From: Candidatus Babeliales bacterium
GTDB lineage: Bacteria; Babelota; Babeliae; Babelales; JACPOV01
Length of the DNA stretch: 64,000 nt
Direction of reading: 5' to 3'
Assembly (NCBI GenBank): GCA_050250855.1
Contig: JBFWNW010000001.1
Location: 409,357-473,356, forward strand
Positions 61,657-64,000 of this stretch are shown one piece after another. A program made the translations under genes and the position numbers. How positions within the stretch are numbered: the stretch's first letter is position 1; the number at the start of each line of letters is the position of its first letter. The notes under the pieces were generated by a model. It did not search any database. It was not told the DNA's origin and saw only the letters and a list, made by a program, of their open reading frames with translations.

Positions 61657-63084
61657 ATGTTACGTAAACTATTACTTTTCACCTTACTTTTAGGAGCTAT
61701 AGCTCCTGCAGCTGCAGCTTCAATCAAACTTGTATCAAACGATGATCAAGAGTTTGAGATAGAAAAAGCTGCTGCTGAACAATCAGAAACTATTAAAAAT
61801 ATGTTAGCCGATCTAGAAGATCAGCAAGATCAACCAATTAATTTACCTGCCATAGATGGAAAAACATTGGGACTTATTGTAGAGTTTCTGAACAACAACA
61901 AAGATTTGAGTAATCTAAATCTTTCTGATCTTATAAACCTGGTTAATGCTGCAAATGGTCTTGATATACCTAAGCTTCTTGATGCAGCTGCTAGGCTGTT
62001 AGCAGAACATATTCAAACCAATAAAGCAAAAATTAACATTCAAGAGCTTAAAGAAAAGCTTCCCCTTGATATGCAAAAGCTCGTTGAAGCAAAGATACCC
62101 TTTAAGTTATTACAAACTCTTACGGGGCATACGGACTCGGTCCTTTCAGTAGCATGGTCACCAGATGGCACCAAGCTTGCATCAGGTTCATGGGACGAAA
62201 CCATAAAAATATGGGATGTAAAAACTGGCACCGAGCTTCAAACTCTTACAGGGCATACACGCTGGGTCTTTTCAGTTGCATGGTCACCAGATGGCACCAA
62301 GCTTGCATCAGGCTCATATGACAAAACCATAAAAATATGGGATGTAAAAACTGGCACAGAGCTCCAAACTCTTACGGGGCATACGGACTCGGTCCTTTCA
62401 GTTGCATGGTCACCAGATGGCACCAAGGTTGCATCAGGTTCAACTGAAAAAACCATAAAAATATGGGATGCACAAACTGGCACCGAGCTTCAAACTCTTA
62501 CGGGGCATACACACTGGGTCCTTTCAGTTGCATGGTCACCAGATTGCACCAAGCTTGCATCAGCTTCATGGGACAAGACAATAAAAATATGGGATGTAAA
62601 AACTGGCACAGAGCTCCAAACTCTTACGGGGCATACACACTGGGTCGTTTCAGTTGCATGGTCACCAGATGGCACCAAGCTTGCATCAGGTTCAGCTGAC
62701 AAAACCATAAAAATATGGGATGTAAAAACTGGCACAGAGCTCCAAACTCTCACGGGGCATACGGACTCGGTCCTTTTAGTTGCATGGTCACCAGATGGCA
62801 CCAAGCTTGCATCAGGCTCAGATGACAAGACCATAAAAATATGGGATGTAAAAACTGGCGCCGAACTTCAAACTCTTACAGGCCATACAGACCTGGTCCA
62901 TTCAGCAGTATGGTCACCAGATGGTACAAAACTTGCTTCAGCTTCACATGACAAGACCATACAAATATGGAACCAAGAAAGTATTTTTTCTCACGATGAA
63001 AATAGGAAGCAACTAGCATTGACACCATCAACACAGCTTTCTGCAGCGGCAATTGTCGCCAGCCTGCTATTTTTTAATAAATAA
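61657..63084 (+). CDS. Secreted Skp1(BTB/POZ)-like domain fused to a seven-blade WD40 propeller
   Basis: Signal peptide MLRKLLLFTLLLGAIAPAAAA. SIKLVSNDDQEFEIEKAAAEQSETIKNMLADL..PINLPAIDGKTLGLIVEFL..LINLVNAANGLDIPKLLDAAARLLAEHI aligns with the SKP1 N-terminal fold. It is followed by 7 x 42-aa repeats of LQTLTGHT..V.SVAWSPDGTKLASGS.DKTIKIWDVKTGTE. Confidence 0.8.
   Translation: MLRKLLLFTLLLGAIAPAAAASIKLVSNDDQEFEIEKAAAEQSETIKNMLADLEDQQDQPINLPAIDGKTLGLIVEFLNNNKDLSNLNLSDLINLVNAANGLDIPKLLDAAARLLAEHIQTNKAKINIQELKEKLPLDMQKLVEAKIPFKLLQTLTGHTDSVLSVAWSPDGTKLASGSWDETIKIWDVKTGTELQTLTGHTRWVFSVAWSPDGTKLASGSYDKTIKIWDVKTGTELQTLTGHTDSVLSVAWSPDGTKVASGSTEKTIKIWDAQTGTELQTLTGHTHWVLSVAWSPDCTKLASASWDKTIKIWDVKTGTELQTLTGHTHWVVSVAWSPDGTKLASGSADKTIKIWDVKTGTELQTLTGHTDSVLLVAWSPDGTKLASGSDDKTIKIWDVKTGAELQTLTGHTDLVHSAVWSPDGTKLASASHDKTIQIWNQESIFSHDENRKQLALTPSTQLSAAAIVASLLFFNK
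62107..62980 (+). repeat. Seven tandem 126-bp units (WD40 blades) with very high nucleotide identity
   Basis: caaactcttacggggcatac...gcatggtcaccagatggcaccaagcttgcatcaggttca...accataaaaatatgggatgtaaaaactggcac.gagct recurs with a period of 126 nt. Confidence 0.85.
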
Positions 63085-63096
63085 ATGGAGATTACT

Positions 63097-64000
63097 ATGT
63101 TACGTAAACTATTACTTTTCACCTTACTTTTAGGAGCTATAGCTCCTGCCGCTGCCGCTTCAATCAAACTTGTATCAAACGATGATCAAGAGTTTGAGAT
63201 AGAAAAAGCTGCTGCTGAACAATCAGAAACTATTAAAAATATGTTAGCCGATCTAGAAGATCAGCAAGATCAGCCAATTAATTTACCTGCCATCGATGGA
63301 AAAACATTGGACCTGGTTGTAAAATTTCTGAAAAACACCAACAAAGGTTTGAGCAATCTAAATCTTTCTGATCTTATAAACCTGGTTAATGCTGCAAATG
63401 GTCTTGATATACCTAAGCTCCTTGATGCAGCAACTACACTGTTGGCAAATTATATTCACAACAACAAAGCCAACATTCCAGAGGAAAATCTTCCCGTTGA
63501 TATGCAAAAGCTCATTGAAGCAAAGATGCCATTTAATAATGAACCATTTAAAAATCTTACGGGGCATACAGGCGAGAAGGTCAGATCAGTTGCATGGTCG
63601 CCAAATGGCACCAAGGTTGCATCAGGTTCAGATGATAAAACCATAAAAATATGGAATGCACAAACTGGCACAATAATCCAAACTCTTACGGGGCATAAAG
63701 ACTCGGTCCGGTCAGTAGCATGGTCACCAGATGGCACCAAGGTTGCATCAGGTTCAGATGATAAAACCATAAAAATATGGAATGCACAAACTGGCACAAT
63801 AATCCAAACTCTTACGAGGCATACACACTGGGTCAATTCAGTAGCATGGTCACCAGATGGCACCAAGCTTGCATCAGGTTCAGAGGACAACACCATAAAA
63901 ATATGGAATGCACAAACTGGCACAATAATCCAAACTCTTACGGAGCATACACACTGGGTCAATTCAGTAGCATGGTCACCAGATGGCACCAAGCTTGCAT
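63097..64000 (+). CDS. Second secreted Skp1-like::WD40 protein (partial; runs off the window end)
   Basis: Not in the ORF track because it is open-ended. The first ~200 nt are almost identical to 61657 onwards. Manual translation: MLRKLLLFTLLLGAIAPAAAASIKLVSNDDQEFEIEK...NLTGHTGEKVRSVAWSPNGTKVASGSDDKTIKIWNAQTGTIIQTLTGH... Confidence 0.75.
   Translation, partial: MLRKLLLFTLLLGAIAPAAAASIKLVSNDDQEFEIEKAAAEQSETIKNMLADLEDQQDQPINLPAIDGKTLDLVVKFLKNTNKGLSNLNLSDLINLVNAANGLDIPKLLDAATTLLANYIHNNKANIPEENLPVDMQKLIEAKMPFNNEPFKNLTGHTGEKVRSVAWSPNGTKVASGSDDKTIKIWNAQTGTIIQTLTGHKDSVRSVAWSPDGTKVASGSDDKTIKIWNAQTGTIIQTLTRHTHWVNSVAWSPDGTKLASGSEDNTIKIWNAQTGTIIQTLTEHTHWVNSVAWSPDGTKLA

Follow-up and report, generated by a model that had tools for sequence, protein, structure and literature searches.

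Pathogens are known to take over host cullin-RING ligases with mimics of the F-box, BTB-box, U-box or SOCS-box, whereas mimicry of the adaptor Skp1 itself is not known. Among F-box proteins, WD40 propellers and leucine-rich repeats (LRRs) define the two main substrate-binding classes. Here we analyse a 64,000-nt stretch of DNA (the window; contig JBFWNW010000001.1, positions 409,357 to 473,356) from a metagenome-assembled genome (MAG) of Candidatus Babeliales (Dependentiae), at the end of which two tandem paralogues, gene 1 and gene 2, each encode a signal peptide, a Skp1-type POZ domain and a WD40 propeller in a single polypeptide. Babeliales are obligate intracellular parasites of protists (PMC4378268, PMC4776705). 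We conclude that these proteins are real and amount to a form of host ubiquitin-ligase mimicry not described before, with a mechanism that is plausible but unproven.

The arrangement recalls the receptor arm of the Skp1–Cul1–F-box (SCF) ligases, in which Skp1 pairs with an F-box/WD40 protein (Skp1–β-TrCP1, 1P22; Skp1–Fbw7, 2OVR). In that arm Skp1 contacts the first cullin repeat through its POZ domain, and the F-box contributes to a ‘bipartite interface’ (PMC3779351). The window proteins share with it a Skp1-family POZ domain at the N terminus, a seven-bladed WD40 propeller as presumed target binder, and the order of docking module, helical connector and propeller. They differ in being one polypeptide with a signal peptide rather than two chains; in joining the two modules through a connector of ~26 residues instead of an F-box and helical linker, with neither F-box nor the H7/H8 clamp; in the prokaryote-type, repetitive character of the propeller; and in the replacement of Tyr109 by Gly.

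Single-chain adaptors are familiar from Cul3 ligases: BTB–Kelch proteins have been described as single-chain analogues of Skp1/β-TrCP1 and carry a two-helix 3-box after the BTB domain (PMC3597819). With these and other Cul3 adaptors (BTB–3-box–Kelch and MATH–BTB proteins such as KLHL11 and SPOP), the window proteins have in common a single-chain POZ-fold adaptor layout, a (here predicted) two-helix extension and a β-propeller. Their POZ domain is, however, of the Skp1 type, with no BTB structure among the top 50 Foldseek matches and no BACK domain, and their predicted partner is a Cul1-like cullin rather than Cul3. An earlier sequence-only reading of this DNA had proposed a single-chain mimic of an SCF arm; the architecture is real, but the idea has this eukaryotic precedent (PMC3597819). 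That reading had missed the hydrophobic C-terminal tail, the H6-like helix and the existence of a wider family. The window proteins fall outside bona fide Skp1 (no PF01466, hot-spot aromatic lost), outside BTB adaptors (below the cut-off) and outside the FBXW class (no F-box), and by analogy they would work most like BTB–Kelch adaptors, built on a Skp1 POZ domain.

Among bacteria, Legionella AnkB/LegU1 and Agrobacterium VirF likewise plug into the host SCF and redirect ubiquitination. These effectors mimic the F-box, need host Skp1 and are delivered by type IV secretion, whereas the window proteins mimic Skp1, would bypass host Skp1 and, bearing Sec signals, would use type II secretion. A structure of AnkB with human Skp1 (5k35) appears among the Foldseek matches of the POZ model. 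Closer in lifestyle are the Parachlamydiaceae, amoebal obligate intracellular bacteria in which families (NEX/PEX) of F-box or BTB-box proteins with LRRs or tetratricopeptide repeats were reported as the only prokaryotic occurrence of BTB domains, in an account that reports no bacterial Skp1-like proteins (PMC4209131). The two systems share eukaryote-derived cullin-ligase adaptor domains joined to repeats, lineage expansions and tandem duplicates; the Parachlamydiaceae combine F-box or BTB-box with type III signals, and the Babeliales a Skp1-type POZ domain with Sec signal peptides. The earlier statement that bacterial effectors mimic the F-box and not Skp1 needs widening to include these BTB-box families (PMC4209131). 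Full-text searches turned up no account of bacterial Skp1-like proteins, on which the Babela and TM6 genome papers are silent. Parasite-encoded POZ-fold homologues of cullin adaptors are also known from giant viruses (the Skp1-like proteins of Pandoravirus, Solumvirus, Pithovirus, Cedratvirus and Fadolivirus) and from poxviruses (BTB–Kelch). Unlike the window proteins, the canonical Skp1 sequences that we saw in giant-virus MAGs and metagenomes (L011, L019, L021) are free-standing, ~160 aa long and retain the C-terminal domain, with no WD40 fusion or signal peptide in any of them.

Two putatively exported proteins with a Skp1-type POZ domain

Gene 1 (61657..63084, + strand) encodes 475 aa comprising a signal peptide, a Skp1-type POZ domain, a two-helix extension, a seven-bladed WD40 propeller and a hydrophobic tail. 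Its paralogue, gene 2 (63097..>64000, +), has its 3′ part beyond the window end; its full-length form is P0158 (MGE4168375.1; 452 aa), which is annotated in the same MAG and with which gene 2 clusters at ≥90% identity. A third paralogue, P0157, is annotated there too. Start codons were set at 61657 and 63097, each with GGAG 6 nt upstream, and P0158 likewise starts MLRK. Exact-sequence look-ups of gene 1 and of P0158 returned no record. The first 180 nt of the two genes agree at 177 positions, which points to recent duplication or gene conversion.

The POZ domain spans residues 22–121 of gene 1 (61720..62019, +), on the evidence of Pfam PF03931, a PDB search and Foldseek, and 63160 to ~63462 (+) in gene 2, with 79% protein identity between the two (tblastn). 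Skp1_POZ (PF03931) matches gene 1 and gene 2 with E-values of 8.8e-18 and 4.4e-17 (64.7 and 62.5 bits; gathering cut-off 21.9), and the generic BTB model PF00651 stays below its cut-off of 20.5 (17.2 and 15.8 bits, E 0.006–0.017). In a phmmer search of the PDB, Skp1 came first (Dictyostelium Skp1a, 1.9e-9) and Elongin C followed at 8e-5. An AlphaFold2 (AF2) model of residues 21–150 has a mean predicted local distance difference test (pLDDT) score of 93.2, and its best 50 Foldseek matches in the PDB are Skp1 throughout. The full-length model of gene 1, with two domains, has a pLDDT of 92.6 and a predicted template modelling (pTM) score of 0.84. The colinearity with SKP1 that the sequence-only reading had pointed out is borne out by these matches, which are strong and specific to Skp1 over generic BTB, and we regard the domain as confirmed to be of the Skp1 type, by sequence significance and by predicted fold.

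Both proteins begin with a predicted Sec-type signal peptide, as had been proposed. In gene 1 it occupies residues 1–21 (MLRKLLLFTLLLGAIAPAAAA; 61657..61719, +), on the evidence of sequence features, a hydrophobicity scan and a low-confidence AF2 helix ahead of the first POZ strand; in gene 2 it lies at 63097–63159 (+). A basic n-region (MLRK) leads into a hydrophobic core (LLLFTLLLGAI) and an AxA site (APAAAA|S); the peptide contains no Cys and no lipobox and so is not of the lipoprotein type. Because the first POZ strand of the AF2 model begins at residue 22, the mature N terminus, (A)SIKL, coincides with the PSIKL start of Skp1.

A short helical connector after the POZ domain

The POZ model superposes on truncated Skp1 structures with a root mean square deviation of 2.5–2.8 Å and on full-length Skp1 with 7–8 Å, which indicates that the part C-terminal to the POZ fold differs from Skp1. 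In gene 1 this part is a two-helix extension or linker of residues 122–147 (62020..62097, +), made up of an H6-like segment, KINIQELKEKL, and a conserved LP.D/E helix, LPLDMQKLVEAKIP. The AF2 model places two helices after H5, at residues 128–134 and 137–145 (pLDDT ~91–93). In a MAFFT alignment KINIQELKEKL falls on H6 of Skp1 (KTPEEIRKTF) and the linker on H6/H7. In the window proteins and six relatives, neither the Skp1 C-terminal domain (PF01466) nor an F-box (PF00646, PF12937) gave a match at E≤10. Skp1 H6 thus seems to be kept in reduced form, with H7/H8 replaced. The earlier claim that the C-terminal helices of SKP1 are absent holds insofar as PF01466 goes undetected, but an H6-like helix remains.

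The conserved LP.[DE] helix resembles F-box helix 1 by eye only. We considered it as an F-box remnant and rejected the idea, given the lack of any F-box match and the placement of the linker on H6/H7. The two-helix extension has no sequence similarity to the 3-box.

A prokaryote-type propeller with repeats that vary at predicted top-face positions

In gene 1 the propeller covers residues 148–441 (62098..62979, +) and comprises seven Pfam WD40 repeats and 28 predicted strands, that is, seven blades; in gene 2 the WD40 repeats start at ~63551 (+). The description of a linker running into seven WD40 blades therefore fits gene 1, but in the deposited form of gene 2 (P0158) six repeats are recognisable. 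The repeats are encoded by tandem units of 126 bp (42 residues) that are 88–91% identical to one another, the figure for gene 1 being 88%. Foldseek gives as best propeller matches 5yzv (Thermomonospora) and 2ymu (Nostoc), at 52–56% identity, with WDR5 at 39%. The propeller is of the prokaryote type and highly repetitive, so the gene looks like a bacterial assembly and not like one taken over in its entirety from a eukaryote.

Positions 9, 10 and 12 (HT-xx-V-x) and 28 (GS-x-D) distinguish repeats that are otherwise almost the same. In pairwise comparisons of repeats, these four codons, which were picked out after inspection of the data, show nonsynonymous differences in 74% of cases and no synonymous ones, against 13% and 9% at the remaining codons. 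Positions 10, 12 and 28 are recognised top-face hot-spot positions of WD40 repeats. The data are indicative of a concentration of between-repeat variation on the predicted top face of the propeller.

A conserved helix, EQAxxIWxYLQxxHKAGWxGI, follows the propeller in many POZ–WD40 relatives (L006, L007, L008, L010, L026, P0149) and is absent from the window genes.

Loss of the cullin hot-spot aromatic

Work on Elongin C identifies two residues of particular weight for cullin binding: F109A abolishes binding to Cul5 and weakens binding to Cul2 ~55-fold, and M105A weakens binding to Cul2 75-fold (PMC5462531, PMC3779351). We transferred this hot spot to Skp1 by homology, the full-text literature having yielded nothing usable on Skp1–Cul1 contact residues. 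Where Skp1 has Tyr109 and Elongin C has Phe109, gene 1 carries Gly101 (codon GGT, 61957..61959, +) and gene 2 Gly102 (codon 63400–63402, +). This column holds Tyr or Phe in 94% of eukaryotic Skp1 sequences (Y 101, F 16) and in 39 of the 49 aligned bacterial-type domains, where the counts are Y 33, F 6, H 2 and G 2, both Gly being those of the window genes. P0157 and most relatives retain Tyr or Phe.

Whether the predicted structure keeps a Cul1-binding surface, a point on which the earlier proposal had been made to depend, thus has a divided answer: the fold and the AAN.LDI helix are kept, but the hot-spot aromatic is replaced by Gly. With Gly in place of this conserved aromatic, the window copies may bind a cullin weakly or differently.

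A modular family centred on Babeliales

To place the two genes among their relatives, the POZ region was scanned with HMMER against 1.84 billion representative sequences, giving 426 matches at E≤1e-3, the best 150 of which were classified. About 110 of these 150 are canonical Skp1 with the C-terminal domain; ~30 lack it, and ~20 of the latter bear an N-terminal signal peptide. The proteins with signal peptides include WD40 fusions (P0019, P0114, P0115, P0131, P0149), fusions to other propellers (P0012, P0036), LRR fusions (P0021, P0043, P0079, P0119, P0133, P0136) and proteins consisting of two or three POZ modules alone (P0003, P0015). A later profile search returned almost exclusively canonical Skp1, together with an RCC1-fused fragment (P0161), and no match came from a word-indexed search for homologues of the N-terminal 159 aa.

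A genome scan with patterns taken from the window sequences found nothing. With patterns from a five-sequence alignment (one of 19 sequences was too diverse), the GTDB species genomes yielded seven loci, six in Candidatus Babeliales MAGs and one in an unclassified ‘bacterium’, whose open reading frames (ORFs) of 510–545 aa encode a signal peptide, a POZ domain and then WD40 repeats. One Babeliales chromosome (OY970310.1) carries at least three POZ–WD40 loci and a tandem array. Metagenomes added further fusions to WD40, LRR and Lcl_C (DUF1566) modules. Among the last, L013:2932..4494 and L018 encode a signal peptide, Skp1_POZ and two Lcl_C domains on contigs with a GC content of 0.49–0.53 (L013, 0.49). 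The FolC neighbour in L013 is nearest to proteins from Myxococcaceae/Deltaproteobacteria MAGs, at ≤50% identity, so the POZ module is not strictly confined to Babeliales. Almost all members of known taxonomy are Babeliales, with one Lcl_C-fused relative in a non-Babeliales lineage; among the relatives found, the architecture is not one common in free-living bacteria, which would have spoken against the earlier proposal. We describe the whole as a modular family, in which a constant Skp1-derived POZ domain with its two-helix extension is joined to a variable WD40, LRR, other-propeller, RCC1 or Lcl_C module.

The bacterial-type POZ domains have another bacterial-type POZ domain as best match in 27 of 28 cases and keep the Skp1 hallmarks S.TIKN, PIPLPN and AANYLDI. 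Canonical Skp1 sequences that begin MADDDQVTLQSQDGQDFKVEVK resemble them, and canonical Skp1 from protist or giant-virus contigs has the N-terminal pattern DDQVTLQSQDGQDFKVEVK..SETIKNLIEDAG in common with the bacterial domains. These similarities are consistent with capture of the POZ domain from a protist-associated gene pool.

At one of the family loci, L002 (GCA_003173975.1, PRDU01000035.1; 4200..11301), the double-POZ/WD40 protein P0019 is clustered with two WD40 proteins and one ankyrin-repeat protein, in what looks like an island of eukaryote-like repeat proteins.

Predicted signal peptides and hydrophobic tails in the family

Sequence features point to a Sec-type signal peptide in all family members examined. 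The C-terminal hydrophobic tail of gene 1 (LSAAAIVASLLFFNK; 63037..63081, +) is rarer: of 24 family members, three have one, namely gene 1, gene 2 and P0131. We tried it as a known sorting signal (GlyGly-CTERM, PEP-CTERM) and rejected this for want of any NCBIfam match. Given the tail, the window copies may be anchored in a membrane when they act, whether at the surface of the bacterium, at the vacuole or on a membrane of the host.

Gly/Ala-rich hydrophobic C-terminal tails with final aromatic–Lys motifs recur in Babeliales proteins, among them P0158 and proteins of the L004 and L010 loci. Examples are GLGFVAYKLFFNK, ALVGVFAYKWLTANNSNE (in an unrelated neighbour gene, L010:2492..3877) and GGYLLWKKSQQGE, none of which fits a known sorting-signal model. 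Such tails might serve as a membrane anchor or as a sorting tag particular to this lineage.

Gene cluster and neighbourhood

A further gene (61080..61640, +), encoding 186 aa with a hydrophobic N terminus, opens the cluster; it lies 16 nt upstream of gene 1, and gene 1 is separated from gene 2 by 12 nt. With the same strand throughout, these short gaps and no terminator-like site seen between them, the three genes probably form one operon. The 186-aa product has no match in Pfam or NCBIfam. It was considered as a conserved partner of the family and dropped, being absent beside other family members. Ahead of the cluster lies a promoter-like site with the full sigma-70 consensus, TTGACA-16 nt-TATAAT (61015..61042, +; 12/12 matches), the sole perfect match within 59900..64000. 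The total count of promoter-like sites in that interval is no higher than in shuffled sequence, and the assignment of this site as the cluster's promoter is suggestive only.

The window carries bacterial genes for an FtsH-like protein, thioredoxin reductase, leucyl aminopeptidase, a class I tRNA synthetase, DnaB, DnaN and an integrase/recombinase; no tRNA or Rfam features were found in it. The order DnaN, DOT1-like gene, integrase, 186-aa gene and POZ gene start is repeated in a second MAG from the same organism (GCA_050181685.1, JBFXCY010000128.1; locus L001). Bacterial housekeeping neighbours and a gene order shared between two MAGs led us to reject eukaryotic contamination or an assembly artefact as the origin of the genes. 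The L001 contig ends 60 codons into gene 1, where it was probably broken by the near-identical 126-bp WD40 units (62113..62970 in the window). Such units probably break or collapse short-read assemblies in general, and repeat numbers in MAGs are uncertain for that reason.

Elsewhere in the window, a 222-aa protein (59277..59945, +) has a signal-peptide-like N terminus (MLKKYILIILLPLCMHAKS) and a DOT1 histone-methyltransferase domain (PF08123, E 3e-18), with an exact match in two Candidatus Babeliales MAG records; it is a possible secreted DOT1-like methyltransferase that would act on chromatin of the host. Two ORFs of 646 and 706 aa (32890..34830 and 45244..47364, both −) have no Pfam match at E≤1e-5, and a 667-aa protein (22478..24481, −) shows an unusual pairing of pentapeptide repeats with a type I phosphodiesterase/nucleotide pyrophosphatase domain.

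Proposed mechanism and alternative explanations

Our tentative proposal, held with somewhat less than even confidence, is that the window genes encode exported, effector-type, single-chain Cul1-type receptors of a Babeliales parasite, with a Skp1-derived POZ domain acquired from a eukaryote. The signal peptide would take the protein across the inner membrane by the Sec route. Type II secretion belongs to the core genome of TM6 (PMC4776705), and in Babela type II is the sole secretion system, ankyrin proteins with signal peptides are presumed to reach the amoebal cytoplasm, and mimicry of the ubiquitin system is prominent (PMC4378268). In the host, the POZ domain would dock on the N-terminal repeat of a Cul1-like cullin as Skp1 does, and the top face of the propeller, which varies from repeat to repeat, would capture targets. 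One chain would thereby stand in for Skp1 and an F-box/WD40 receptor and redirect host ubiquitination, following the logic of BTB–3-box–Kelch adaptors on Cul3. For the family at large we infer export by Sec and type II, a constant cullin-docking POZ domain and a variable target-binding domain, acting as receptor or possibly as decoy.

Several observations favour such a receptor. Skp1 hallmark motifs are retained in bacteria that lack cullins, the modules joined to the POZ domain correspond to those of FBXW and FBXL proteins, and the predicted two-helix extension that follows it (AF2, pTM 0.84) is reminiscent of the 3-box of BTB adaptors; tandem paralogues occur both in the window and in OY970310.1. 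Other observations weigh on the opposite side. Docking on a cullin is predicted from homology. Both window copies carry Asn and Gly where Skp1 has L105/Y109 and Elongin C has M105/F109, and among ~170 POZ domains Gly at the hot spot is confined to these two genes; the F-box, which forms part of the Cul1 interface in SCF (PMC3779351), is undetected in them. The signal peptide was judged by eye and by a hydrophobicity scan, and together with a hydrophobic C-terminal tail it would also suit a periplasmic protein anchored in the membrane. Since Babela grows inside a vacuole (PMC4378268), a type II-secreted protein must still cross the vacuolar membrane. The choice of hypervariable positions after inspection makes the top-face pattern indicative rather than the outcome of a formal test.

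A different possibility is that the proteins bind host factors independently of cullins, the POZ domain oligomerising, scaffolding or binding, for example, Sgt1, while the WD40 propeller sequesters or relocalises host proteins. Loss of the aromatic in both window copies fits this reading, as do the presence of a Sgt1–Skp1 structure (5an3) among the Foldseek matches, the binding of Skp1 to RAVE (PMC11648922) and the homodimer seen in a structure of truncated Dictyostelium Skp1 (6v88). Most family members, however, keep the Tyr/Phe hot spot and the whole AANYLDI motif, and the set of fusion partners parallels the receptor families of cullin-RING ligases; we consider cullin-independent binding unlikely. 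The same Skp1 homology that suggests an adaptor would serve equally for a decoy or inhibitor, in which the POZ domain occupies a host cullin or another Skp1 partner and titrates SCF. Relatives made up of two or three POZ modules only (P0003, P0015) could sequester several cullins in this way, and the absence of an F-box-like contribution to the interface agrees with it. Against titration, the POZ domain is consistently joined to binding domains of various kinds and the propeller has diversified chiefly on its top face, which argues that target recognition matters, something a pure decoy could do without; the hot-spot Gly would also impair a decoy no less than an adaptor. We judge a decoy to be distinctly unlikely.

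A further explanation is that the proteins belong to the bacterial envelope, anchored by the tail on the periplasmic side of the inner membrane or displayed as surface adhesins, with a role in bacterial physiology or attachment and not in the host cytosol. Gene 1, gene 2 and P0131 do combine a signal peptide with a hydrophobic tail, and in NCBIfam the WD40 region shows a weak likeness, far below cut-off, to periplasmic TolB-type propellers. Most family members lack such a tail, though, and the tail fits no known sorting signal. A periplasmic role also hardly explains why a bacterium should keep a hallmark-bearing domain whose only known partners (cullins, F-box proteins, Sgt1) are eukaryotic and missing from that bacterium. 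We rate an envelope function as distinctly unlikely too.

The receptor proposal can be put in a broader and more doubtful form, which we offer as a possibility: that Babeliales and a few other bacteria have built a repertoire of single-chain Cul1-type receptors, secreted by Sec and type II and independent of host Skp1 and of F-boxes, as the first prokaryotic Skp1-derived effectors and a counterpart of the FBXW/FBXL proteins. The copies with Gly for Tyr would then be specialised members, for example membrane-anchored or altered in cullin specificity.

Implications

The family probably hijacks or blocks the protein-degradation machinery of the host. If the receptor proposal is true, one chain can act as receptor for Cul1 just as it does for Cul3, and these proteins would be minimal natural scaffolds from which degraders independent of Skp1 and F-box could be engineered. 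Diversification of the top face repeat by repeat would show how a binding surface can be redirected rapidly in nature. For the almost unstudied Dependentiae, the family would represent a concrete, testable set of effectors.

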